Shown: positions 35,857-48,072, counted from the first letter of the stretch. The stretch: DNA of 64,000 nucleotides from an uncultured Christensenella sp. (GCA_964481445.1 CAYZTQ010000001.1:7701-71700), one strand, 5' to 3'. Program-made: numbers and translations. The notes: a model not told the origin generated them from the letters alone.

Positions 35857-36292
35857 GCTGTATACGGAGATTATTACAGAATATGCCGCCGACAAGGCGC
35901 ACTGGCATCATCTGGAGCATGCCGACGTCAGCCAGCGGGGGGTCAACCCCAGCTGCGGCGATGAAATCAGTCTGGAGCTGGAGATCAAGGACGGCGTTAT
36001 CAAAAAGGTAGGGCTCATCGGCAGCGGCTGCGCCATTTCCTCTGCTTCCGCCTCGGTGCTGGCCGATATGATGGAGGGCATGGACGTGGAGGAGGCGAGG
36101 CGCCTTTCCCGCCTGTTCATCGACATGGTGCGCGGCGAAGCGCAGTCGGAGCAGGAATTGGAGGAGCTGGAGGACGCGCTCGCCTTCCGGGGCATCTCCA
36201 AAATGCCGGCGCGCACCAAGTGCGCGGTGCTGGCCTGGCATACGCTGGAAGAAGCCGTCAGGCAATGGCAGGCGAAAAGAGCAAAGGATTGA
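35843..36292 (+). CDS. sufU: SufU/IscU-like Fe-S scaffold (sulfur acceptor)
   Basis: 149 aa. It carries NPSCGDEISLELEI, GSGCAISSASASVL and KCAVLAWHTLEEA, which are SufU-type motifs. Confidence 0.85.
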   Translation: MELNELYTEIITEYAADKAHWHHLEHADVSQRGVNPSCGDEISLELEIKDGVIKKVGLIGSGCAISSASASVLADMMEGMDVEEARRLSRLFIDMVRGEAQSEQELEELEDALAFRGISKMPARTKCAVLAWHTLEEAVRQWQAKRAKD

Positions 36293-36327
36293 TTATTTTT
36301 TATCAGCAGATTTTGCTTATACTTAAA

Positions 36328-36343
36328 GTTTACAATTGTAAAC
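36328..36343. repeat. Perfect 16-bp palindrome GTTTACAATTGTAAAC (motif copy 1)
   Basis: Read directly. It overlaps the left arm of the suf terminator and lies about 90 nt upstream of the SBP-like gene. The same 11-mer, GTTTACAATTG, recurs at 41275-41287 on the minus strand. Confidence 0.5.
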
Positions 36344-36363
36344 GGCCCAGAGAGGCCGTTTTT
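36340..36363 (+). terminator. Rho-independent terminator of the suf operon
   Basis: AAACGGCC (36340-36347) pairs with GGCCGTTT (36354-36361), followed by TTG. Confidence 0.55.
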
Positions 36364-36429
36364 GATTATAATCGTGTTATGATGTTTATGTGACAAAATA
36401 CTCTTTATCCCATCCGGAAAGGAGAAGCC

Positions 36430-38776
36430 ATGAAAAAACTGACAGCTTTGATACTGATTGTCATGCTGCTTGCAGGCGGCGCGCTCTCTGAAAGCGCGCA
36501 GAGCGCTCTGCAGACGGATCTTACCCTCGGGGAGGATTTTTGGGTGAGTTCTTCCGCTTTCCTGGCGGACCGGATGTACCTGACCTCGGGCGGCAGCTTC
36601 TATGTCTATACCCCGGGCACGCAGGAGCCTGAAAAGCTGAAGGTTGTCGACGCGCGCGGCATGGGAAAGCCGGAGGGTCAGTCTGAAGAGGCCGTATATT
36701 ATCAGCTGCGTCTGTTCCGCGACGGAGACAGCCTGTACGCCGTGGATCTGAGCGACAGCCAGATGATCTATCCGCTGGCGCTGGAGGGGCAAGACACTGA
36801 CCATTCAGTCCGGCGTCAGCATCAATACCGAGCCCCTGCGCAACATGGAGTACGGGGACGAGGGCTATATGGACGAGCCTCTTTCCATGCTTGCCCAGAA
36901 TGGCAGGCTGTATGTCATTGCAAGGTTCTGGGGAAATGGCGGCGAGGATGAGCTGAAGCTGTTCAGCTTTGATATAGCGAAGGGCGGCGAGTGCAAAGAA
37001 CATGCCGCGCCGAATGTCTGGAGCCTGGCCCCTTACCGGGAGGGAAAGCTGCTGGCCGCTGTGATGAACCCGCGGGACAGCTATGACCAGAAAGCAATGG
37101 CCAACCGGAATTTCAGGCTGTGCGCCTTGAACCCCGCGGACGACAGCCTGACCGAGCTGTGGGATTCGGGCGTGCCCTTTGACTATAACAGCATTTCGCT
37201 TGCCTACGACGCGGAAAACGCGCTGGCCTATGTGGAGGGAAAGACCGAAATCTATCGTGTTGCCGAGGGGCAGCAAGCGGAAATCTGTGCCTACCTGCCG
37301 CCCAGCCAGTTCGACCAAAGCCTTGGGGGCGGCCTGTTTCCGCTGAAGGACGGCCGGATTCTTTCGATTCGCGGCAGAGACTTTACGCTGCGCGGCACCG
37401 ACCCCGCGCTGCTGCCCAAGGGCAGGCTGACCATCTACGGAAGCTACATGAACGATACGCACCAGAAGGCAATCAAGGCCATGAACGGCATCCCCGTCAG
37501 CTTTCTGGATAACACCTGGTTTTCTTCCGCGCAGCAGCTGGGGCAGGCGCTGGTTTCCGGCGAGGACAGCTTTGATATCTATATGCTTAACGTGAATTTT
37601 ATGGACCTGAAAAACCTGATGAAAAAGGGCTACGCGCAGGATCTGAGCGCCAGCGAGAGCCTGAAAAAATATGTCAGCAGCCTCTACCCCATGATGCAGC
37701 AGGCCGGCAGCCTGGACGGCAAGCTGTACATGGTGCCCGTTGAGATGAACGTGGAAGGATTGTTCTCCTATTACAGCAAGCTGGTCGAGCAGGTCAAGGG
37801 CTTCGAGCTGCCCAAAACCTATGATGAAATGATCGACGCGATTCAAAACTGGAACGACAACCTGGGGGAGGAGTACCCCGACTTTACCATCATGCAGCAG
37901 GACGATTTCAAATACATGATGGTCGCCATGGCGCTCGATATGCAAAAGAACCGCATGGCCATGCAGGGCAGAGACTTCAGTTACAACGACCCGCAGCTCA
38001 GGCACATGCTGGAGCGCGCCCTCTCCCTCAATACCGAGAACATCGCGCAGAAAATCGACTGGACATCGCCTGACGCGCAGAGCCAGTCGGAGGAGCTGTA
38101 CAGCAGGCCGCCTCTGCTTGAAACCTATTATTGGCTTGACCTTGAGCGGATGAACCGTGAGATGAGCAAGGGAGAGGATGAGGAAACGCTGGTCGGCTGG
38201 GGCGATGGAAGCAAGACCTACGATGTGGGCCAGAATAAGCCGCTGATGCTTTCGGCCGCGGAGGGGGAGGAGCCTGTGACACCCATCACTCTGTGGGTCA
38301 TGGCGGTCAACCCCAAGTCGAAGAACTTAGACGCCGCGATCGCCTATGTGGAACAGTATGTCAACAACATCGAGGCTGCCAAAAAGGCCATGATGAACCC
38401 CGATATGAATGAAGACATCGAAAACCCGAGGTTTTTAGAGGAAACCAAATGGCTGGATGAATATGAGGCGCAGATGAAGAAAGCCTGGGAGGAAGCCGAG
38501 GGGGCGGAGAAAACCCAGGCGGAGAAGGACTACCAGGAGGCGGTCAGGCGCAACCAAAAGGAGCGCGAACGCGCCAAATTCAGCGTGCGCGCCGAAACCA
38601 TTGCCTTCTACAGGGAAATCATCAAGAACAGCTATGTCAGGGAGTATGACCCTGCGCTTACATCCCAAGACATGTATCAGCTGCAGCAGCGCCTGATCGA
38701 GGGGCAGATGCCGCTTGACCAATTCCTCAGCGAGTCGGAAGGAAAGCTGCGGCTAATCCGTCTGGAGGGGCAATAA
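36430..38776 (+). pseudogene. Large secreted solute-binding-protein-like protein, paralogue A, interrupted by a +1-nt frameshift in a GGGG run
   Basis: Track ORFs 36430..36951 (frame 1) and 36845..38776 (frame 2) together align end to end with the 783-aa paralogue at 38838..41189. Deleting one G from GGGG (36786-36789) gives ...MIYPLALEGKTLTIQSGVSINTEPLRNMEYGDEGY..., versus paralogue B ...MIYPLSVDGDALVVKDGVSINTEPLRNMEYGDEGY... The reconstructed length is 781 aa. Confidence 0.65.
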
Positions 38777-38837
38777 GAATAGCATCACGGTACAACAGGT
38801 GGAAAGACAGGCAAAGTGACAGAAAGGGGATTGTATT

Positions 38838-41189
38838 ATGAAGAAACTGCTGAGCTATATCCTGACGCTTGCGCTGCTGCTGAGCAGCGGCGCTGCCGCC
38901 GCATCAGAGGCCGCGCCGCAAACGGACGCGGATATTTCGGTGGGTGAAAACAAGTGGCTGGGAAGCAGCGCGATGCTTGACGGCAGGCTGTACTTTGGTT
39001 CGGGTGATGAATATCTGAGCTACACGCCCGGCGAGGAGGCGGTCAGGACGCTTGAACTCAAGGATGAAAGAACGCTAAAGAAAGAGGAAGACGAAACGCC
39101 GAACCTCATGCTGGCTTCGGATGGGGAAAAGCTTTATGGCTTTGCCCTGCATCAGGCGGGCATGATCTATCCCCTCAGCGTGGATGGGGATGCGCTGGTC
39201 GTCAAGGATGGCGTCAGCATCAATACGGAGCCGCTGCGCAATATGGAGTATGGGGATGAAGGCTACATCGAAACCCCCATGCAGATTCTCTGCCAGTCAG
39301 GCAGGGCGTATTTCGTCAACCGCAATTACACCTCAAGCGGTGATGCCAAACTGAGCCTCGGCAGCTACGACCTGGAAAAGGGCGGCGAGATGACCAAATA
39401 TCAGGCGCAGTTCGTCTGGCGTCTGGCCGCCTATAAGGACGGCAAGATGCTGGCGCAGGTGCTGGATCCGGAACAAACCTGGGATGAGAAGACGCAGCAG
39501 ATAAAAAACTACGCGCTGGCGCTCTGGGATCCTGCCGCGGACACGCTGGAAGATCTGGGCGACCTGGGCGTGAAAGCGAATTTCGAAGGCACCCCCATGG
39601 TCTATGACGCGGAAAAGGATCTGCTTTATATTCAGGGCAAAAGCGAAGTCTATCAGCGCGGCGCGGACGGCGTGCTCAAAATCGGCGCCTACCTGGTGCC
39701 CAACCAGTACGGCGGCCAGAGCGCGGATAATATCTACCTGCTGGGGCAGGGGCGCATGGCGGTGGTGGGCGGCCCCAATATCTCGCTGCGGGAGCCCAAC
39801 CCCGATACCCTGCCTTCCGTGCGGCTGACCATCTACGGCAGCTACATGAACCCGGCCCATCAGAAAACCATCAGCGCGATGGGCGGCCTGCCGGTCACTT
39901 TCCTGGACGGCAAATGGTTTGAGTCCGCCCAGAAGCTGGGGCAGGCGCTGGTCTCGGGCGATGACAACATCGACATCATGGTGCTCAGCGCCAGCTTTAT
40001 GGACCTGAAAAACCTGATGAGCAAAGGCTACGCGGCCGATCTGAGCGGCAGCGCCAAACTGAAGGAATACACGGACGCGCTTTACCCGGATATGCGGGAT
40101 ATGGGCCGCTACGAGGGCAAGCTGTTCATGGCGCCGGTATCCGTCAACGGCTCGGGCCTGATGGGCTACTACCCCAAGCTGTTTGAAGAGCTGAGCGAGC
40201 TGAAGGTACCCGCTGCCTTTACCGATCTGGTCGACCTCCTGCAGCAGTGGAACGACGACATGGCGGAAGAGCATTCCGACCTGATCCCGCTGCAGAGCGA
40301 TGACTACAAATTTAACCTGATGTACAAGGCGCTGCGCATGAAGGCGGCCATCGCCGCGGCGCAGGGCAAGGAGTTCTCTTTCGCGGACCCCGAGCTGAAA
40401 GCCATGCTGGAGGCGGTCATCAACCTGAACGCCGATGATATCCTGCCCAAGGTGGATTGGGAGAAGGACCCTGAAGGCGCTGAGGAGCAGATGAATGAGA
40501 TCTACAACCGCACGCCGCTGATGACAGACTACTATTCCACCGATCTGAGGAGTCTTAACTACCAGCTGACCATGCCGGATTCGCAGACCTCCCGCAAGCG
40601 GGCCGGTGAAAACGGCGAGACCATTTCTTCCGGCCCTCTGGAGCTGCTGCGCCTGTCCACTGTCGAGGGTGGGGCGCAGGAGCCGGTGCAGCTCTACCTG
40701 AGCCTGATGTTCGTCAACCCCAAATCCAAACATCTGGATACGGCTATCGCCTATATGGAAGAGTATGTCAAAAATCTGGAGCCTGCCGAAGCGGCGATGA
40801 TGATGCCGGGGATGAACGGGGATATCGAGAACCCCGACTACGAGCAGGAAATCAAGGGCCTTGAGGAATCCTTCCAGTATTACGAGAAGACGATCAAAGA
40901 GGCGGAAGGCGCCGAGAAGACCCAAGCCGAAAAGAATTACGAAGAATTCAAGCAGTACGCGGAAAACCGCCGCGAGGAGGCCAAGTACGCTGTGCGCAAG
41001 GAGACCCTCGCCCGCTTCCGTGAAATCATGGAGAACCGCGCCATCACGACCTATGAATCGAACCTGATCTTCAATAATGAGGATATGAGCAAGCTGCTCA
41101 ACCGCCTGATGCAGGGGCAGATGCCGCTTGACCAGTTCCTTTCGGAGGCGGACGGCAAGCTGCGCCTGATGCGGCTTGAGAACCAATAA
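38838..41189 (+). CDS. Large secreted solute-binding-protein-like protein, paralogue B (N-terminal extra domain, SBP family-1-like core, charged helical tail)
   Basis: 783 aa. The signal peptide MKKLLSYILTLALLLSSGAAAASEA has no lipobox Cys. From about RLTIYGSYMNPAHQKTISAMGGLPVTFLDGKW...DIMVLSA...GKLFMAPVSVNG the core resembles CUT1 sugar SBPs (from memory). The tail is rich in E/K and ends GQMPLDQFLSEADGKLRLMRLENQ. Confidence 0.55.
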   Translation: MKKLLSYILTLALLLSSGAAAASEAAPQTDADISVGENKWLGSSAMLDGRLYFGSGDEYLSYTPGEEAVRTLELKDERTLKKEEDETPNLMLASDGEKLYGFALHQAGMIYPLSVDGDALVVKDGVSINTEPLRNMEYGDEGYIETPMQILCQSGRAYFVNRNYTSSGDAKLSLGSYDLEKGGEMTKYQAQFVWRLAAYKDGKMLAQVLDPEQTWDEKTQQIKNYALALWDPAADTLEDLGDLGVKANFEGTPMVYDAEKDLLYIQGKSEVYQRGADGVLKIGAYLVPNQYGGQSADNIYLLGQGRMAVVGGPNISLREPNPDTLPSVRLTIYGSYMNPAHQKTISAMGGLPVTFLDGKWFESAQKLGQALVSGDDNIDIMVLSASFMDLKNLMSKGYAADLSGSAKLKEYTDALYPDMRDMGRYEGKLFMAPVSVNGSGLMGYYPKLFEELSELKVPAAFTDLVDLLQQWNDDMAEEHSDLIPLQSDDYKFNLMYKALRMKAAIAAAQGKEFSFADPELKAMLEAVINLNADDILPKVDWEKDPEGAEEQMNEIYNRTPLMTDYYSTDLRSLNYQLTMPDSQTSRKRAGENGETISSGPLELLRLSTVEGGAQEPVQLYLSLMFVNPKSKHLDTAIAYMEEYVKNLEPAEAAMMMPGMNGDIENPDYEQEIKGLEESFQYYEKTIKEAEGAEKTQAEKNYEEFKQYAENRREEAKYAVRKETLARFREIMENRAITTYESNLIFNNEDMSKLLNRLMQGQMPLDQFLSEADGKLRLMRLENQ

Positions 41190-41274
41190 TCCATTTTTCT
41201 GAATGCGCGGGGCGCGGGGCTTTAAGCTTCCGCGCCCTTTGCGCTTCTTTGTGCGCCGCATGAAGGCCTCTTGC

Positions 41275-41328
41275 CAATTGTAAACAAGCGCTCTTCTGCT
41301 CCCGACTTTGTGGGTTTTGTTACAATTG
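41275..41328. repeat. Inverted pair of the AT-rich motif: CAATTGTAAACAA (41275-41287) and TTGTTACAATTG (41317-41328)
   Basis: Read directly. The reverse complement of the first copy is TTGTTTACAATTG, so the two arms can pair over about 12 bp with one bulged T around a 29-nt loop. The pair sits between SBP-like gene B and the first permease gene. Confidence 0.45.
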
Positions 41329-41406
41329 ATGGGATCTGCTTATCTTGAAGCCCTGTTTAGAATGAAGTAGTATAGGTATGGTATTAAAAAAACGGAAGGA
41401 GCGGCG

Positions 41407-42264
41407 ATGTTTCAGAAAAAGAAGAGCCTCTGGCTCTTTCTTCTGCCGGGCCTGACAGGGCTTTTGCTGTTTTATGTGGTGCCCTTTCTGGGCGGCATTT
41501 ATTACAGCATGACGGATGGTACCATTTCCAACGAGATCGTCTGGTTTGCCAACTATAAGCGAGTGTGGGACAACGAGGTGTTCCGGCTGGGGCTTAAAAA
41601 CTCCCTTGAGCTCAGCCTGCTTTCTGCGCCCCTTATTTTTGTGTTTTCATTTATTCTGGCTGTTATGCTGCGGACGCTGAAAGAAAAGTCGGTCAGCTTC
41701 CGCAACCTGCTTCTGATGCCTTATCTGGTGCCGAGCGCCGCGCTGCTGATCGTGTGGCAGCAGATATTGTTCGATTTCGGCGGCCCGGTCAACCGTCTGG
41801 TCGCTGCCTTTGGCTTTGAGCGCGTGCTCTGGCTGGAGTCGGAGGCGCTCAGGGTGCCTGTCGTGTTTCTGTATATCTGGAAGAACCTCGGCTTTTCCAT
41901 TGTGCTCTTCTCAGCCGCCCTCTCCTCGGTGCCGGACGCGCTGTACGAGTTTGCCCGTCTGGAGGGCGCGGGCGTGGTGCAGCAGGAGCTGAAAATCACC
42001 CTGCCGATGATTTTGCCCACAGCTTTTCTGGTGTTCGTGATGGCCTGGGTCAACGCCTTCAAAATCTTCAAAGAGGTGTATTTCATCGGCGGCGCCTATC
42101 CGAGGGATTCGGTCTATACCCTGCAGCATTATATGAACAACCAGTTCGCCAAGCTGGATTATCAGAACGTGACGACGGCCGCCTACAGCTTCGCGCTGAT
42201 CGTGTTCGTGCTGTTCGGCATGCTGTATTTAAGCAGGGGGGTGCGCGGAAATGACGGCAGGTAA
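41407..42264 (+). CDS. ABC importer permease (CUT1/MalF-LplB type, binding-protein-dependent family)
   Basis: 285 aa with about 6 TM segments. The EAA loop reads YEFARLEGAGVVQQELKITLPMILP. Confidence 0.85.
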   Translation: MFQKKKSLWLFLLPGLTGLLLFYVVPFLGGIYYSMTDGTISNEIVWFANYKRVWDNEVFRLGLKNSLELSLLSAPLIFVFSFILAVMLRTLKEKSVSFRNLLLMPYLVPSAALLIVWQQILFDFGGPVNRLVAAFGFERVLWLESEALRVPVVFLYIWKNLGFSIVLFSAALSSVPDALYEFARLEGAGVVQQELKITLPMILPTAFLVFVMAWVNAFKIFKEVYFIGGAYPRDSVYTLQHYMNNQFAKLDYQNVTTAAYSFALIVFVLFGMLYLSRGVRGNDGR

Positions 42265-43144
42265 CCCCGCTGTGAGAAAACACCGCCGCAGGCCGCTGCG
42301 GCCCGGGCGCGCGCTCAGCTACGCGGTGCTGGTCATCGTCTGCGCGCTGCTGCTGCTCCCCATCGCGCTGACCTTTCTGTACAGTTTTTTCCCGACGGCT
42401 GAGATGAAGGCCTTTCTGGAGACGCGCAACAATTACGAGCCGGGCCATTTTATGGACATCCTGCTTTCGCCCTCCATTGTGTCGCTGGGGCAGTATTACA
42501 GCCTGATGATCGAAAAGCCCGTCTACCTGCAGCTGTTTTTCAACTCCGTCTTCTATACCCTGAGCATATTGCTGGGGCAGCTGCTGGTAATCCCCATGCT
42601 GTCCTACGCGCTGAGCCGCTTTAAGTTCCGCGGGCGCGACACGCTGTTTTTCATGGTGCTGATGCTGATGCTGCTGCCTTTTCAGGTGACGATGGCGCCC
42701 AGCGTGCTGACCATGCGGACGCTGGGGCTGATGAACACCCGCTGGGCGGTGATTCTGCCCATGATCTTCTCCCCGCTTTACATCTTCCTGATCCGCCAGT
42801 ACATGGTGGGCATTCCAACGGATATGTTTGAGGCGGCCATGATGGACGGTGCCGGTACCTGGCGCTGCTTTGCGCACATGGTGATGCCGATCTCCAAGCC
42901 CATCCTCGGCGCGGCGGCCGCCCTCAGCTTCGCGGACGGCTGGAACATGGTGGAGCAGCCGCTCATCTACCTGAGCAACGATCAGGGGGCCATGCCGCTG
43001 TCGGTCATGTTTGACAAGGTGGCTTCGGCTGAGCCCGGCGTGGCCTTCGCGGGCGCGGCGCTGTACATCCTGCCAGCGCTGCTGATCTACACCTACTTTC
43101 AGGAAGACATCCTGCTGGGCATTCAGCTGAGCGATATGAAATGA
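42251..43144 (+). CDS. ABC importer permease (CUT1/MalG-LplC type)
   Basis: 297 aa. The EAA loop reads MFEAAMMDGAGTWRCFAHMVMPISKP. It overlaps the upstream permease gene by 14 nt. Confidence 0.85.
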   Translation: MTAGNPAVRKHRRRPLRPGRALSYAVLVIVCALLLLPIALTFLYSFFPTAEMKAFLETRNNYEPGHFMDILLSPSIVSLGQYYSLMIEKPVYLQLFFNSVFYTLSILLGQLLVIPMLSYALSRFKFRGRDTLFFMVLMLMLLPFQVTMAPSVLTMRTLGLMNTRWAVILPMIFSPLYIFLIRQYMVGIPTDMFEAAMMDGAGTWRCFAHMVMPISKPILGAAAALSFADGWNMVEQPLIYLSNDQGAMPLSVMFDKVASAEPGVAFAGAALYILPALLIYTYFQEDILLGIQLSDMK

Positions 43145-44508
43145 GCCGCGCGATGAAGATGAAAAAAGTATTGATAAAAGCTCTGCTCGCGCTGGCCTGC
43201 GCGGCGCTTCTTTTGACGGCCGCTTTCGCGCTCTGGCAGGCCCTTGATACGGCGCAGGTAGAGACCGTTCTTCCCGTCCGCGGCAGGCTGCGGGATGAGA
43301 TCCCCCTGGAAGGGGAGGTCTATTTTAAGGAAAGCGACGCCTATTCCATTCCGCTGGCAGCCAAACTGAACCTGTATGTGGAGGAGGTCAGAGTGCGACC
43401 GGGCAGTAGGGTGCAGCCGGGCGACGTGCTGTTCACAGCCTCGGTGCCGGGGTATGAGGCGGAGCTTGAGAAGCTGATGAAGGCCTACAGGGAGGCGGTG
43501 GCGAAGTACTCCGAAAAATCGGCCGCCGGGCTGCATTTCGGCCAGAGCAGCCCGCATAACGATTACTACAACGCCATGATTCACGCCACGGAGAATTATT
43601 GGGAAAAGCTGTACCGCGCCAGGACCGCCGCTCTTGCCGCGGGGCAGGAGCTGCCGGCGAATATCGCCGATTGGAAGGCAGGGCTTTCTGGAACGCGGGA
43701 CAAGGCGCTGGAGGAGGCTGTTAGGGAGGCGCTGTCGGCGAAAGAAGCCATGGACGGGGCGACGGCGACACTGAAAAGCATCTATGAGGAAGGTAAGCCC
43801 GTGCCGCGCCTCGGAGACGCCTACTTTGCCTACATCAAAGAGCTGGACGGCCTCAAGGATGGCGTATACGAACAGCTGCGCGTCCTGATGGATTTTGAGC
43901 GGAAGGTCGACGCGCTGAAGATGACGAAGGCGGAGGCGGGCGGCTATGTGACCGAGCTGAATGTCAAAGAGGGCGAGGGATATGACGGCAGCAAACCGGC
44001 CTACCGCCTGAGCGCCGCGGGAGAGAAGCCGCTGATCCGCTGCGAGACGAGCCACCTGACAAAGGAATTGAGAACCGGCCTGCAGGCCGGGCTGCCCGGC
44101 GGCGGGTCGCTGAGCGTGGTTTCAACAGAGAAAACGCCGGACGGAAAGACCTGGGCGTATCTGGAACCGGATGAGGAGCTTTTGAAAACGCCCGAGGGCG
44201 TAGAGCGGCTGATGGAAAAGAAGCAGGCCCTCCGCCTTCGCTATGAGGCGGAGGAAACCGCGACCCTGCTGCCGGCGGGCGCGCTGCATCTGGATGGCGA
44301 CGGCCGGTACTTTGTCTGGACAGCGCGGAAGGCTGGCGGCCTCCTGCCCGGCCTCAGCGCCGACAGAGCTGCCCGGCAGGAGGTCACGGTGCTGGAAACC
44401 TCGCAGGATATGGCCGCCGTCCGGGAAGAGTTGACCGGCCTTCAGGTGCTGTACCGGGAGAATAAGGCGCTTCATGAGGGCAGGAGGGTACGGCTGCATG
44501 ACAACTGA
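43141..44508 (+). CDS. Membrane-fusion (HlyD/MFP periplasmic adaptor)-like protein, paralogue A
   Basis: 455 aa with an N-terminal TM anchor (KALLALACAALLLTAAFALW). A lipoyl-like hairpin is present (YVEEVRVRPGSRVQPGDVLFTASVP), followed by a helical region and a C-terminal beta-domain pattern (LPAGALHLDGDGRYFVWTARK...VTVLETS). The ATGA start/stop overlaps the permease gene. Confidence 0.5.
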   Translation: MSRAMKMKKVLIKALLALACAALLLTAAFALWQALDTAQVETVLPVRGRLRDEIPLEGEVYFKESDAYSIPLAAKLNLYVEEVRVRPGSRVQPGDVLFTASVPGYEAELEKLMKAYREAVAKYSEKSAAGLHFGQSSPHNDYYNAMIHATENYWEKLYRARTAALAAGQELPANIADWKAGLSGTRDKALEEAVREALSAKEAMDGATATLKSIYEEGKPVPRLGDAYFAYIKELDGLKDGVYEQLRVLMDFERKVDALKMTKAEAGGYVTELNVKEGEGYDGSKPAYRLSAAGEKPLIRCETSHLTKELRTGLQAGLPGGGSLSVVSTEKTPDGKTWAYLEPDEELLKTPEGVERLMEKKQALRLRYEAEETATLLPAGALHLDGDGRYFVWTARKAGGLLPGLSADRAARQEVTVLETSQDMAAVREELTGLQVLYRENKALHEGRRVRLHDN

Positions 44509-44559
44509 TATGAGAATAGACAACGGATTTTATCAAAAGAACAGGGTGGGGGACGCGAG

Positions 44560-46143
44560 ATGAACACGAAACGAAAAGCTTTGAAAGGCCTGCTGATACT
44601 GACCTGCGTGCTGCTGGCCTGCATGTTCTTCGCGCGTACCGTGCAGACGATCACCACCGCCAAGGTGCAGAAAATCACCGCCACCCGCGGAAAGCTGGAA
44701 GATATCATCAAGGTGGACGGAGAGATCCGTTTTTCCAAAAGCGAGCCTGTGACGCTGAAAGGAGCCAAAGACCTGCCTCTGACCATCGAAAAGGTGCTGG
44801 CGCGGCCCGGCTACCAGATCAAAGCGGGAGATACGCTTTTCACCGCTTCGGTGCCGGATTTTGAAGATAAGCTGGAAGCCATCAAGGCGGATTATGATAA
44901 AAAGGTGCGCGAGCGGGCTGAAACTGTGGCCGGCAGCCTGCGCATCAAGCAGACAAGCGAACAGAACGACTATTATAACGCGATGATTCACGCGACAGAC
45001 GACTACTGGGATAAGCTGTTCAAGGCCAAGTCCGCGGCGCTGGCCGCCGGGGTGGAGCTGCCGGACGATATCAGCCAGTGGCAGGTCAACCGTGTGGAAA
45101 CAGTCGTCTCAGACGCGGCAGATGCGAATGCGCAAAAGGATCAGCCCCAGCCCGAAGCGGCGCAGACGCCGGAGGGAAAGCAGACGGAAGAAGCCGCGCC
45201 GGTTGAAACTGTTGAAAAACAGGAAGAGAAGGCGACCGGAGAAAAAACAGCCGACAAGGCTGATACGGCAGAGCGTGATAAGGCGGGGCAGGAAGCCGTG
45301 CCCGATAAAACCCCGGAGCAGAAGACTGAGGAGGCCATGAAGCTGGCCATGCAGCAGGCCTATGAAGCCATGCTCAAAAAGGACGAGGCAACCGATCTGC
45401 TGAAGAGGATTTATACCAAAAAGAACGCGCCCGCCCCCAGAATCTTTGACGGCGTGTTCGATTACATCAAAAAAATCGACAAGATGAGCGAGGAAATCCA
45501 CGATTATCTTGATAAGATGCTGAAGCTTGAGAAGCAGAAGATTGCGCTTGAGCGCATCAAGGCGGAGCGGGACGGCTGGCTGACAGACTTTTCCCTCAAA
45601 GCGGGCGATAAGTATGACGGCAGCAAGCCGGCCTATTCCCTGAGCCTGCCGGGCGAAATGCCGGTGATCCGCTGCGATATCAGCGATGTCAAAAAGACCA
45701 TCACCAAGGGGATGAAGGCCCGGCTGTCCGGCAACGACACCGAGCTGAAAATCAGCGACGTGGTGATTATGGCGGGCGGGAAGAAATACGCCGTCATTGA
45801 GCTGGATGAGGATACGCTTTCCAGCCTCGGCGGCCTGAGCAAGCTGATCAGCGGCCCTCAGAAGATGGAGATCGTCTACAAGGCCAAACGCACCACCACC
45901 CTGATCCCCCTGAGCGCGCTGCGCAGCGAGGCGGAGAACAAATACTATGTCTATGTCATTCAGGAAAACTGGGGCGGGTTGCTCAGCAACAACACCTATA
46001 CGGTGAAAAAGCAGGATGTGACGGTGATCGAGACCTCGGCCAAGCTGGCGTCGATTGAGGATGAAATGAGCCAGCTGCAGCTGGCGGACCGGGAGGACAG
46101 GGCGCTGAAGGACGGTCAGGCGGTGATGGAATATGTCGATTAA
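44560..46143 (+). CDS. Membrane-fusion (HlyD/MFP)-like protein, paralogue B, with an acidic low-complexity insertion
   Basis: 527 aa. It is collinear with paralogue A: IEKVLARPGYQIKAGDTLFTASVP; NDYYNAMIHATDDYWDKLF versus NDYYNAMIHATENYWEKLY; IPLSALRSEAENKYYVYVIQ. An extra E/K/A/T-rich insert of about 80 aa lies at about 45090-45340. Confidence 0.5.
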   Translation: MNTKRKALKGLLILTCVLLACMFFARTVQTITTAKVQKITATRGKLEDIIKVDGEIRFSKSEPVTLKGAKDLPLTIEKVLARPGYQIKAGDTLFTASVPDFEDKLEAIKADYDKKVRERAETVAGSLRIKQTSEQNDYYNAMIHATDDYWDKLFKAKSAALAAGVELPDDISQWQVNRVETVVSDAADANAQKDQPQPEAAQTPEGKQTEEAAPVETVEKQEEKATGEKTADKADTAERDKAGQEAVPDKTPEQKTEEAMKLAMQQAYEAMLKKDEATDLLKRIYTKKNAPAPRIFDGVFDYIKKIDKMSEEIHDYLDKMLKLEKQKIALERIKAERDGWLTDFSLKAGDKYDGSKPAYSLSLPGEMPVIRCDISDVKKTITKGMKARLSGNDTELKISDVVIMAGGKKYAVIELDEDTLSSLGGLSKLISGPQKMEIVYKAKRTTTLIPLSALRSEAENKYYVYVIQENWGGLLSNNTYTVKKQDVTVIETSAKLASIEDEMSQLQLADREDRALKDGQAVMEYVD

Positions 46144-47335
46144 GCGGGCCGCGCTGCTGGCTCTGTGCGCTCTATGCATAGGCGCTGTCCTGCTGTCCCT
46201 CAGGGGGACGCCCGCCGTCTTTGAGTATAATATCCTCTCACCCCGCGTTGAAAAGCCGGAGCCCGCGGCGCCTTCGCCCGAGGAGCAGGAAAGCGGCGGG
46301 CAGCCCAAAGAAGAAAAGCCGAGCGCTCTCAGTGAGCTTTTAAAAGACCTGGATGCGAAGGCGCAGGATCTTGGCGGCGTCCTGTCCGCCTACGGCGCGG
46401 CGGCCTATCTGCCCTCCGCCTCCTGCTCAGACCCTCAGTCGGAGAAGGAACCCAAGGCGGCCCTGCTGAAGGGGATCTGGGGCGCCAGGCTGCACCCGGA
46501 CGGCGTGCTTGTGGAAGGGCGGCAGCTGTATCTGGAGGAAATCGAGAAGGGAAGCCCCTGCGCGGTCATCAACGAGTGGCTGGCCATCAACCTGTACAGA
46601 ATCGGCAATCCCGTGGGGCGTAAACTGCGCGTGGGGGAGGCCGAGTTCACCGTGGTCGGCGTTGTGAAAAGCGCGCGCACCGTGGGGGACAGGGAGCCGG
46701 GCCTTGTGCTGGCGCCCCTGCTTGCGCTGGATAAAGCCGGTATCCAGACCCGGATGCTCAGCGTGCTGATGCAGCCGACGCCCGGCTCGGGCGCCTATGC
46801 CGCGCTCAGCCAGGCGATGGCGAAATGGCAGGAGGGGGGAGACTTTTACAGCCTGCCCAAGGAAGCCTACCGCGTGCGCCTGCCTCTGCGGCTGCTGCTG
46901 TGCGCGCTTGGCGCGCTGGTTGTGGCGGTGACGCTCAGGCTGTCGGGCCTGGCGACAAAAAGTCTCTATCAGGGCGGCAAACACAGGCTGGAAAGGCGCT
47001 ACGCCGTCAACATGCTGCCCGAAATCATCGGGCGCGCCCTGCTGATCCTCCTGATGTACGCTGTAAACGCCGCGGCCATCGCACTGATTTTGCAGGCCCT
47101 GATCGCGCCGGTCTATATCTTCCCGGAATGGGTGCCGGGGCGCCTGGTCGACCCGGGCAAGATCGCCGAAACCTTCTGGATTCTGAGAGGGCAGGAGAAT
47201 GGCCTGCTTTCGCTGCGCACGCCGGAGCTGCTGCGCCTCAGATACCTGCACAGGCTGATGACCGTTTTCTGCTCTGCGCTGTTCTTCCTGCTGCTGCGTC
47301 CCTACTATTTATGGAAGAAACGCGTATTTGACTGA
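46133..47335 (+). CDS. MacB/FtsX-like 4-TM membrane protein with a large extracytoplasmic domain
   Basis: 400 aa. TM1 is AALLALCALCIGAVLLSL. It is followed by an extracytoplasmic domain of about 200 aa containing a MacB-PCD-like segment (AVINEWLAINLYRIGNPVGRKLRVGEAEFTVVGVVKS), then three further TM segments. It overlaps the upstream gene by 11 nt. Confidence 0.45.
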   Translation: MSIKRAALLALCALCIGAVLLSLRGTPAVFEYNILSPRVEKPEPAAPSPEEQESGGQPKEEKPSALSELLKDLDAKAQDLGGVLSAYGAAAYLPSASCSDPQSEKEPKAALLKGIWGARLHPDGVLVEGRQLYLEEIEKGSPCAVINEWLAINLYRIGNPVGRKLRVGEAEFTVVGVVKSARTVGDREPGLVLAPLLALDKAGIQTRMLSVLMQPTPGSGAYAALSQAMAKWQEGGDFYSLPKEAYRVRLPLRLLLCALGALVVAVTLRLSGLATKSLYQGGKHRLERRYAVNMLPEIIGRALLILLMYAVNAAAIALILQALIAPVYIFPEWVPGRLVDPGKIAETFWILRGQENGLLSLRTPELLRLRYLHRLMTVFCSALFFLLLRPYYLWKKRVFD

Positions 47336-47360
47336 TACGTTTGAAGCCTTTGCGCAAGCA

Positions 47361-47394
47361 GCAATCCCTCCGCACCGGCGGAGGGATTGCTTTA
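47361..47394 (+). terminator. Strong Rho-independent terminator ending the transporter-like operon
   Basis: GCAATCCCTCCGC (47361-47373) pairs with GCGGAGGGATTGC (47378-47390), a perfect 13-bp stem with loop ACCG, followed by TTTAT. Confidence 0.7.
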
Positions 47395-47520
47395 TGCGGA
47401 GAATGATACACACGAAAGGGTTGTCAATGATGCGTTTTCAAAACCCTCGGGAAACGTGAATTATCCTATCAAAAAGGGAGAACGGGTACAAAAAAAGATG
47501 CGGAATAGTGCAAAAAGTAC

Positions 47521-47549
47521 TTGCATTCAGTTTGTCACCTGCGTATAAT
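47521..47549 (+). promoter_or_regulatory. SigA-type promoter of the S10 operon
   Basis: TTGCAT (47521-47526), 17 nt, TATAAT (47544-47549). Confidence 0.6.
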
Positions 47550-47763
47550 AACAAGGCTGTCTGTTTAGGGATGACGCGATAGGTTGCCGCCCCGGCCTTG
47601 GGCGGGTAATTATCGCCGACCAGCCCGAAAATCGGGCGACGGACTCAGGTTTTCTGCCGCAAGACCAGGCGGGGGAAAATCACCGGCAGGCACGCAGCGC
47701 CATCTTGCGTCGGCAATGCGGCCGCACCCGGTACCATGAGAACGATTAATAGGAGGAAATCAA
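47550..47763 (+). promoter_or_regulatory. GC-rich structured 5' leader of ~210 nt upstream of rpsJ
   Basis: Several local helices can be read by eye: CCGCCC/GGGCGG (about 47588-47606), CCCGA-AAA-TCGGG (about 47623-47635), CTGCCG/CGGCAG (about 47655-47690) and ACGCA/TGCGT (about 47693-47711). The leader ends at the RBS AGGAGG. Confidence 0.35.
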
Positions 47764-48072
47764 ATGGCCAATCAGAAAATCCGGATCAAGCTCAAGGCAT
47801 ACGAGCACAACTTGATCGATCAGTCCGCCGAGCGGATCGTGGATACCGCGAAGCGCACGGGCGCCCGTGTTTCCGGCCCCATCCCGCTGCCCACCGAGAA
47901 GGAAATCGTCACCATTCTCCGCGCGCCGCACAAGTACAAGGACAGCCGCGAGCAGTTTGAGCGCCGCACCCACAAGCGTTTGATCGATATTCATAACCCC
48001 AATGCCCGCACTGTGGACGCCATGATGAAGCTGGATCTTCCCGCCGGCGTCGAAATTGAAATCAAACTGTAA
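47764..48072 (+). CDS. rpsJ: 30S ribosomal protein S10
   Basis: 102 aa, reading [44 protein letters not shown]. Confidence 0.97.

Follow-up and report, generated by a model that had tools for sequence, protein, structure and literature searches.

Two groups of described ABC systems resemble the locus reported here. The first comprises CUT1 importers that rely on a shared ATPase, such as AraNPQ, LplABC and MsmE–AmyCD of B. subtilis, served by MsmX (PMC11466899), and Athe_0595–0598 of A. bescii, served by MsmK (PMC12838199). These combine a MalE-like substrate-binding protein (SBP) domain with two BPD_transp_1 permeases bearing EAA loops, and are encoded in operons without an ATPase gene in which the SBP comes first and is followed by a longer spacer. 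Forming the second group are the Gram-positive MacAB-like systems, YknXYZ of B. subtilis and Spr0693–0694–0695 of S. pneumoniae, in which a membrane-fusion protein (MFP)-like component is encoded immediately upstream of the permease. Type VII permeases normally adjoin their ATPase gene, and to our knowledge the described roles of MFP and MacB-type (type VII) components are all in export, extraction or mechanotransduction. ATP drives every type VII system characterised so far, and in B. subtilis eight of eight pair with their own nucleotide-binding domain (NBD) (PMC11466899).

Components of both groups are combined in the window, a stretch of 64,000 nucleotides from an uncultured Christensenella sp. 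Seven genes spanning positions 36430–47335, all on the + strand, encode two giant SBP-like proteins (S-A and S-B), two CUT1-type permeases (P and Q), two MFP-like proteins (M1 and M2) and a MacB-type permease (X). This cassette has the CUT1 features listed above, including the gene order, but departs from the known CUT1 systems in two respects: its SBPs, of ~780 aa, have extra N-terminal β-rich and C-terminal helical domains and no lipobox, and the operon always runs on into genes for an MFP-like protein and a MacB-type permease. Each part comes from a well-known family, but no description of their hard-wired combination without an ATPase was found in the literature searched. The first-pass annotation, made from the sequence alone, had likewise not recognised it as a described system. 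Mentions of ‘MacB’ in PMC12838199 turned out to be strain names and were discarded.

Layout, boundaries and conservation of the cassette

Gene calls place the seven genes at the coordinates and on the strand given in the first-pass annotation, and reproduce the start/stop overlaps that it had reported downstream of the S genes (14 nt for P/Q, 4 nt for Q/M1 and 11 nt for M2/X). Its observation of the importer/MFP/MacB-like gene set as a whole is confirmed with one correction: S-A is present as a paralogous SBP-like gene, but it is split here and is not one open reading frame (ORF). Both bounding terminators that it had proposed were also recovered. At the 5′ boundary, the suf operon upstream ends in an intrinsic terminator (36340–36361, + strand), which the terminator scan reports as an 8-bp stem with five GC pairs followed by TTGATTAT, a T-run. 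At the 3′ end, 25 nt past the X stop codon, is a perfect hairpin with the loop ACCG (47360–47391, + strand), which measures 14 bp and is likely to be the operon terminator; it is missing from the terminator scan list because its T tract (TTTAT) is weak. An Rfam scan of 36000–48000 found no RNA element other than a sub-threshold match to the 3′ end of sX6 lying over this hairpin. Within the 217-nt spacer between S-B and P, a GC-rich hairpin and the T-rich tract after it (41205–41250, + strand; GGGCGCGG...CCGCGCCC TTTGCGCTTCTTTG) may act as a partial terminator that sets an excess of SBP. The best reading of the locus is that the seven genes are a co-transcribed unit, conserved as such in Christensenellales-type Clostridia.

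At least 91 species-level genomes of gut and digester Clostridia carry the cassette. At all 72 loci with enough surrounding DNA, each from the representative genome of a different species and with X identities of 28–73%, the genes lie on one strand in the order S(n)–P–Q–M–X. Median gaps over these loci are 108 nt for S–P, 7 nt for P–Q, 15 nt for Q–M and 3 nt for M–X, the S–P spacer being the only long gap in the cassette family; 47% of the M–X pairs overlap. The flanks vary, with no flanking gene family present at more than 12 of 78 loci, and no regulator, glycoside hydrolase or ATPase was found to be conserved among the flanking genes of these 78. Look-ups begun from S recover the same cassette independently. 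Fortuitous adjacency of the importer and the MFP/MacB halves is rejected on this synteny, as order and tight gaps are kept over 72 loci between unrelated flanks. The earlier suggestion that each accessory component is duplicated in tandem did not hold for the family, whose core is S(n)–P–Q–M–X: M is duplicated only in the window and in its close relatives (L007, L009 and L094), so duplicated accessories are not a defining feature of the cassette. The number of S copies per locus ranges from 0 to 5, and orphan S pairs are also seen elsewhere.

A CUT1 importer with giant binding proteins

S-A (36430–38776, + strand; SBP_bac_8 match at 1.5e-7) is broken in the window into the overlapping ORFs 36430–36951 and 36845–38776 by a 1-nt insertion in a run of G (GGGG for GGG, at about 36786–36789). 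Deleting one G gives a protein of 781 aa with no stops, and the same organism has GGG and an intact S-A of 781 aa in two other, independent assemblies (L091 and L092). S-A is therefore not a true pseudogene of the species, and the extra G is a sequencing error or a strain variant.

S-B (38838–41189, + strand; 783 aa) is a paralogue of S-A, with 45% identity over the full length. It carries a Sec signal peptide without a lipobox and is composed of three domains: an N-terminal all-β domain (residues ~31–318), a MalE-like domain (~330–660) and a C-terminal helical domain (~668–782). Its AF2 model (pLDDT 83.8, pTM 0.81) matches sugar SBPs in Foldseek (SmoF, XOS-binding protein 4g68, LpqY and TMBP; E ~1e-12), a whole-protein comparison that is dominated by the MalE-like domain, and the S profile finds sugar SBPs among PDB sequences at E ~1e-6. 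The similarity of S to MalE-like (family 1) SBPs is limited to the central ~330 residues. The N-terminal domain has no Pfam or NCBIfam match and, when used alone as a profile against PDB sequences, gives only matches with E ≥ 0.2, of which the top two are β-propeller proteins.

A Sec-type AxA signal peptide without a lipobox is found in 81 of 83 S proteins. Christensenella is devoid of LPS and outer-membrane genes (PMC11448272), and as S is secreted without a lipobox, some retention of the SBP is needed. The prevalence of lipobox-free signal peptides strengthens the idea of a scaffold for unanchored SBPs, one of two roles on which the first-pass annotation had speculated, the other being a coupled import/export device.

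P (41407–42264, + strand; 285 aa) and Q (42251–43144, + strand; 297 aa) each contain six TM helices, a BPD_transp_1 domain above the gathering score (1.2e-13 and 2.5e-11, respectively) and an EAA coupling loop. P is UgpA-like (6.5e-22) and Q is UgpE-like (7.9e-25), and the two are also similar to MalF/MalG. Read from the translations, the EAA loop is LYEFARLEGAG...ITLPMILP in P (EFARLEGAGVVQQELKITLPMILP) and FEAAMMDGAGTW...MVMP in Q (FEAAMMDGAGTWRCFAHMVMP); these loops must be the docking sites for an ATPase dimer of the MalK/MsmX type. Together, S, P and Q constitute a CUT1/type I ABC importer.

MacA/MacB-like proteins without an ATPase

M1 (43141–44508, + strand; 455 aa) is a membrane-fusion (periplasmic adaptor)-like protein with one N-terminal TM. 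Its Pfam matches to Biotin_lipoyl_2 and HlyD_D23 lie below threshold, next to a C-terminal RND_mfp match, and several M members have sub-threshold Biotin_lipoyl_2, HlyD_D23 and HlyD_3 matches at the positions expected of an MFP, in which the N-terminal anchor precedes a lipoyl half, an α-hairpin, a second lipoyl half and a β-barrel. A word-indexed homology search with M1 gave four proteins, and the M alignment was built from the loci; the family profile (A2) matches EmrA (2.9e-4) and MacA (1.3e-3), both weakly. M2 (44560–46143, + strand; 527 aa) is a paralogue 36–44% identical to M1, with a low-complexity insert of ~80 aa rich in E, K, A, T and P in the hairpin region, and has no Pfam domain match.

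X (46133–47335, + strand; 400 aa) is a permease of MacB/type VII fold without an NBD. Preceded by about five cytoplasmic residues is TM1 (~3–23), followed by a large extracytoplasmic MacB_PCD domain of ~225 aa (~25–240) and then TM2, TM3 and TM4. MacB_PCD (PF12704) scores 35.4 bits (cutoff 27) and is present in 39 of 39 X homologues; the X profile matches the MacB PCD (7.5e-11), YknZ (3e-9) and Spr0695 (3.5e-9). The AF2 model (pLDDT 84) has full-length Foldseek matches to MacB (1e-10), Spr0695 and LolE/LolC, and aligns with the extracellular domain of YknZ with an r.m.s.d. of 3.5 Å over 178 columns. X shares with E. coli MacAB–TolC and LolCDE a 4-TM fold, a stalk and a Porter/Sabre-type core domain (Foldseek 1e-10 to 1e-4), but has neither the fused NBD of MacB nor the LolD that accompanies LolCE. 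Of the MacB_PCD/FtsX assignment made previously, MacB_PCD and the full-length MacB fold stand, but the Pfam FtsX domain (PF02687) does not, giving no match in X even at E ≤ 1 and being absent from the precomputed domains of the 39 homologues. The other family assignments (SBP, BPD_transp_1 and, with weak scores, MFP-like) agree with the profile and fold searches.

Alignment A1 of the X family contains 20 invariant and 26 near-invariant columns. Invariant across the family is the motif PVYxFPEWVP in the extracytoplasmic TM3–TM4 loop, which suggests a conserved protein–protein interface; the cytoplasmic TM2–TM3 loop is also conserved (L286, Y290 and P296). In one X subclade, a cytoplasmic C-terminal extension of ~150 aa comprises an SCP2_2 lipid-binding-type domain, and is not a hidden NBD.

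X is homologous, and M probably so, to the members of the Gram-positive MacA/MacB-like pairs YknX/YknZ and Spr0693/Spr0695 (PDB 5xu1, 5f9q), minus the ATPase subunit. M resembles YknX and Spr0693 in being a single-TM, MFP-like protein encoded just upstream of the permease. Unlike YknZ and Spr0695, X lacks a detectable Pfam FtsX domain, has a long TM3–TM4 loop containing the invariant motif and sits in an importer operon; and no equivalent of YknY or Spr0694 is encoded in cis at the 72 loci. An outer-membrane partner for M–X is not expected because the lineage is without LPS and outer-membrane genes.

The absence of an ATPase from the cassette, noted in the first-pass annotation, is borne out by a six-frame motif scan of 36300–47400, which found no Walker A, LSGGQ-type or Walker B motif, and hence no missed ATPase domain in any ORF or frame. 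Both ATPase motifs occur in the window only in SufC (31.3 kb) and UvrA (11.1–14.0 kb), the two ABC ATPases already named there. A MalK/MsmX-type ATPase (ABC_tran plus TOBE) is absent in cis, both in the window and within or beside the 72 cassettes, and a dedicated NBD of the MacB N-terminal, LolD, FtsE or YknY type is neither fused nor adjacent to X at these loci. The sole ATPase near a cassette, 350 nt downstream of X at locus L016, is of the MetN type because it has a NIL domain, and was rejected as the cassette ATPase. Other CUT1 operons of the cassette genomes (for example, L002, 15971–19397) are also without an ATPase, which fits a shared ATPase, as with MsmX and MsmK.

Possible roles of M and X

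The explanation that we prefer, and to which we give an even chance, is that the cassette encodes one five-component envelope machine, a CUT1 importer with an MsmX/MsmK-type ATPase in trans and with M–X as a dock for S. P and Q would be powered by this shared ‘multitask’ ATPase, encoded elsewhere. A membrane-anchored M oligomer seated on an X dimer would build a platform or funnel on the extracytoplasmic side, next to the permease, a YknX/YknZ-like docking module that would hold and position the giant secreted S proteins in place of a lipid anchor. The N-terminal β-rich domain of S may capture a large carbohydrate-type ligand, which the MalE-like domain would hand to P and Q, and multiple S paralogues may widen the substrate range. 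That the MFP and type VII parts are an obligatory, ATPase-less dock or funnel of an import machine in thin-walled, outer-membrane-less Clostridia is possible but doubtful. Conceptually, such a machine would recall the Mce and Mla lipid transporters, in which an ABC permease is associated with an oligomeric extracytoplasmic ring protein and, in mycobacteria, the ATPase, MceG, is shared and encoded elsewhere. The analogy would lie in an importer-side ABC permease, a membrane-anchored oligomeric adaptor and an ATPase encoded elsewhere; the cassette has no sequence or fold relationship to Mce or Mla, no MCE domain and a different permease family.

Counting against the preferred explanation, a passive, unpowered X would be without precedent, and the conserved TM2–TM3 loop could dock an ATPase encoded elsewhere; a pure scaffold model also does not explain SCP2_2. 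These three points favour an active role for M–X, as a type VII mechanotransducer or exporter served by a MacB/FtsE/LolD-type ATPase in trans and coupled to the importer, which might, for example, extract a glycan that is amphipathic or lipid-linked from the membrane or wall and pass it to S, or expel an import by-product. The cargo of LolCDE, DevBCA and YbbAP (YbbAP–TesA) is lipidated or hydrophobic, one X subclade carries the lipid-binding-type domain, and X has the full MacB/LolCE fold of a class whose characterised members are all ATP-driven (PMC11466899). Also weighing against the preferred explanation are the weak E-values behind the MFP assignment of M and the lack of a conserved glycoside hydrolase or regulator nearby. 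An active M–X is nevertheless unlikely: in contrast to the usual type VII permeases, no MacB-type ATPase gene lies beside the cassette in 72 of 72 loci, the cytoplasmic segment before TM1 of X is very short, and the long X variants place their C-terminal cytoplasmic domain on the NBD-docking face.

A single motor for both halves, with the MsmX-type ATPase pool, or P–Q with its NBDs, also driving X, would suit a cassette that is wholly without an ATPase, yet strictly co-inherited and translationally coupled. We consider this true hybrid quite improbable, as the type I EAA-loop and type VII coupling-helix geometries differ and precedent is lacking. Scarcely credible is the view that a sugar importer merely happens to adjoin an unrelated remnant of drug or peptide efflux, or that M–X are decaying relics. 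The components do come from normally separate architectures, and the Pfam FtsX domain is not detected in X; but order and tight spacing persist between variable flanks in 72 species-level loci, at identities as low as 28%, X has its invariant and near-invariant columns and a confident fold, and there are about 200 clusters (50% identity) with E ≤ 1e-30.

If the reading of M–X as a dock is true, the cassette would represent a class of ABC importer with a new architecture, and would offer one answer to how unanchored binding proteins are retained in bacteria without an outer membrane. Should M–X work in import, or without a motor of its own, the roles of MacB-fold and adaptor proteins would be wider than those listed at the outset. 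Christensenellales and their relatives are a prominent but poorly characterised gut group, and the cassette provides a concrete target for finding out what they feed on.

Layout of the cassette

Between the suf operon (SufC, 31354; SufS, 34627; NifU, 35843) and the S10 ribosomal operon, of which rpsJ (47764) is the first gene, lies a + strand cassette of composition S(n)-P-Q-M-X. It opens with two giant SBP-like proteins, S-A, split over 36430..36951 and 36845..38776 (781 aa once the reading frame is restored), and S-B (38838..41189, 783 aa), followed by the CUT1 permeases P (41407..42264, 285 aa) and Q (42251..43144, 297 aa), the MFP-like adaptors M1 (43141..44508, 455 aa) and M2 (44560..46143, 527 aa), and the MacB-type permease X (46133..47335, 400 aa). 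The gene overlaps of 14, 4 and 11 nt reported in the first-pass annotation are exact by ORF coordinates, and the terminator that it placed upstream was recovered by a terminator scan (36340–36361). The hairpin that it described after the cassette is perfect, with 14 bp, 3′ of the last stop codon (47360–47391), and has a weak T-tract.

Both parts of S-A belong to a single gene, interrupted by one additional G in a G run (36786–36789), the window having GGAGGGGCAAG where L091 and L092, independent assemblies of this organism, read GGAGGGCAAG and keep the 781-aa ORF intact. The extra G is either an error in sequencing the homopolymer or a frameshift of the strain, possibly a phase-variable one. 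The earlier count of seven genes holds biologically, although the first gene is frameshifted in the window.

S-B and P are separated by 217 nt (41190–41406), in which a GC-rich hairpin precedes a T-rich tract (about 41205–41250); this may be a partial terminator yielding SBP excess. The S10 operon follows the cassette directly on the 3′ side, in the window as in the related genomes L093 and L094. The rpsJ leader of ~370 nt (47400–47763) contains a promoter-like TTGCAT...TATAAT (about 47523–47551) and a GC-rich stretch, and has no Rfam match.

Importer and exporter-type components

Both P and Q match BPD_transp_1 (Pfam), are UgpA/UgpE- and MalF/MalG-like (NCBIfam), and have EAA loops visible in their translations. 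S-A matches SBP_bac_8 (Pfam). The predicted model of S-B (pLDDT 83.8, pTM 0.81) is composed of three parts: an all-beta N-terminal domain (~31–318), a MalE-like domain and a helical domain at the C-terminus. By Foldseek (E~1e-12), the MalE-like domain resembles sugar SBPs such as SmoF, LpqY, TMBP and a binder of xylo-oligosaccharides. Sequence searches gave no detectable relatives of the N-terminal domain. A Sec-type signal ending in AxA, without a lipobox, is present in 81 of 83 full-length S proteins. The cassette has the TMDs and SBPs of CUT1 importers, from which it differs in the missing ATPase in cis and the atypical SBPs; it would work like a CUT1 importer.

Look-ups with S homologues recovered the same cassette twice (L093, L094) and, the third time, two orphan genes in tandem (L095:5184-9794) that encode giant SBP-like proteins of the S type (777 and 732 aa). 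This pair is without P-Q-M-X and lies beside an ABC2 exporter and a two-component system. Genes of S paralogues can therefore also lie outside the cassette, as those of accessory binding proteins usually do.

X matches MacB_PCD above threshold in Pfam, which detected no FtsX domain. A profile of 20 X sequences matches the MacB periplasmic domain (7.5e-11), YknZ (3e-9) and Spr0695 (3.5e-9), and the AlphaFold model (pLDDT 84, pTM 0.75) matches full-length MacB (1e-10, 426 columns) as well as Spr0695 and LolE/LolC. X is therefore a genuine membrane domain of the type VII fold, whose TM region has diverged. Topology, periplasmic core domain and fold are shared with the MacB family, whereas the Pfam FtsX domain is undetected and the partner ATPase subunit (NBD) has no gene in cis. 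Located in the unusually long TM3–TM4 loop is a family-invariant extracytoplasmic motif, PVYxFPEWVP.

In a subclade of 15 loci, X is ~150 aa longer (~550–570 aa) and ends in a C-terminal SCP2_2 (sterol carrier protein-type) domain (E 1e-8 to 5e-5). Four are L037:10001-11689, L050:8104-9768, L072:8014-9720 and L075:9902-11620, and 11 were assigned by length (L041, L046, L048, L051, L052, L055, L068-L070, L077 and L085). Being SCP2_2, the extension was ruled out as an ATPase; presumably cytoplasmic, it hints at a hydrophobic ligand or oligomerisation role.

M1 has sub-threshold Biotin_lipoyl_2 and HlyD_D23 matches and a C-terminal RND_mfp match (Pfam, NCBIfam); M2 has no match in either database. 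In several members of the M family, HlyD_D23, HlyD_3 and Biotin_lipoyl match below threshold where the split lipoyl domain is expected, and a profile of 30 sequences matches EmrA (2.9e-4) and MacA (1.3e-3). M, which has one N-terminal TM, is likely to be an MFP, albeit with weak statistics. An E/K/A/T/P/Q-rich low-complexity insert of ~80 residues in the predicted hairpin region of M2 (residues ~180–260) is absent from M1.

A conserved, ATPase-less unit

With X as query, a word-indexed search retrieved 39 clusters, in all of which PF12704 is the sole domain. Searched exhaustively with an HMM, 1.84 billion representatives yielded 202 clusters at E<=1e-30 and 391 at E<=1e-10; past these extends a long tail of weakly scoring, generic MacB-like proteins, a distribution that argues for a distinct, medium-sized family. 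Relatives of X occur in 91 genomes (scan of one genome per species), nearly all from Christensenella, Christensenellales, Candidatus Limiplasma, Egerieenecus or gut and digester MAGs of unclassified Clostridia.

All window proteins were mapped onto 80 loci kept from the species scan and six fetched earlier. S, P, Q, M and X have identical order and strand at every locus mapped, and the cassette is complete in 72. Median gaps are 7 nt (P-Q), 15 nt (Q-M) and 3 nt (M-X, where 47% of pairs overlap); at S-P the median is 108 nt, this long spacer being a family feature. There are no conserved flanking genes, the commonest flanking family occurring in 12 of 78 loci. The emphasis of the first-pass annotation on duplication of each accessory component does not carry over: S varies from 0 (a contig end) to 5 copies, and M is single except in the window, L007, L009 and L094, where it is doubled, a lineage-specific duplication.

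Six-frame scanning of 36300–47400 found neither Walker A nor Walker B patterns and no ABC signature, and only SufC and UvrA combine Walker A and ABC signature among ORFs of the window. Nor does any mapped locus have an ATPase gene within the cassette; the one nearby ATPase, downstream of the cassette in L016, is MetN-type with a NIL domain. These results show the cassette to be a conserved and tightly coupled unit, without an ATPase gene, that joins a CUT1 importer to a YknX/YknZ-like pair.

Energy supply and the role of M-X

P and Q would be driven by a shared MsmX/MsmK-type ATPase. MsmX of B. subtilis drives at least six systems (PMC11466899), and MsmK provides a shared-ATPase precedent in A. 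bescii (PMC12838199). L002:15971-19397, near the cassette, is an ordinary CUT1 operon (SBP of ~500 aa and two permeases) without an ATPase gene, and second P/Q pairs in L025, L029, L043 and L081 likewise belong to such operons, which fits a common sugar-importer ATPase in the lineage.

M-X, comprising a membrane-anchored M and an X with a large extracytoplasmic domain, may form an extracytoplasmic dock or funnel holding the unanchored giant S proteins. The lineage stains Gram-negative, yet is without LPS and outer-membrane biogenesis genes (PMC11448272), and a freely secreted binding protein would therefore be lost unless retained. The main rival is that X is a powered mechanotransducer, driven by an unlinked MacB-type ATPase. 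An unpowered X would be unprecedented, as type VII systems of B. subtilis have their own NBD in eight of eight cases (PMC11466899), and owing to its conserved cytoplasmic TM2–TM3 loop (L286, Y290, P296) X could dock an unlinked NBD; however, a powered X without an adjacent NBD in 72 loci would be equally unprecedented.

The components are of known kinds. Searches of full-text literature turned up no account of their combination, which the first-pass annotation had likewise not recognised as a described system. If M-X is an import component, the cassette could represent a new architectural class.
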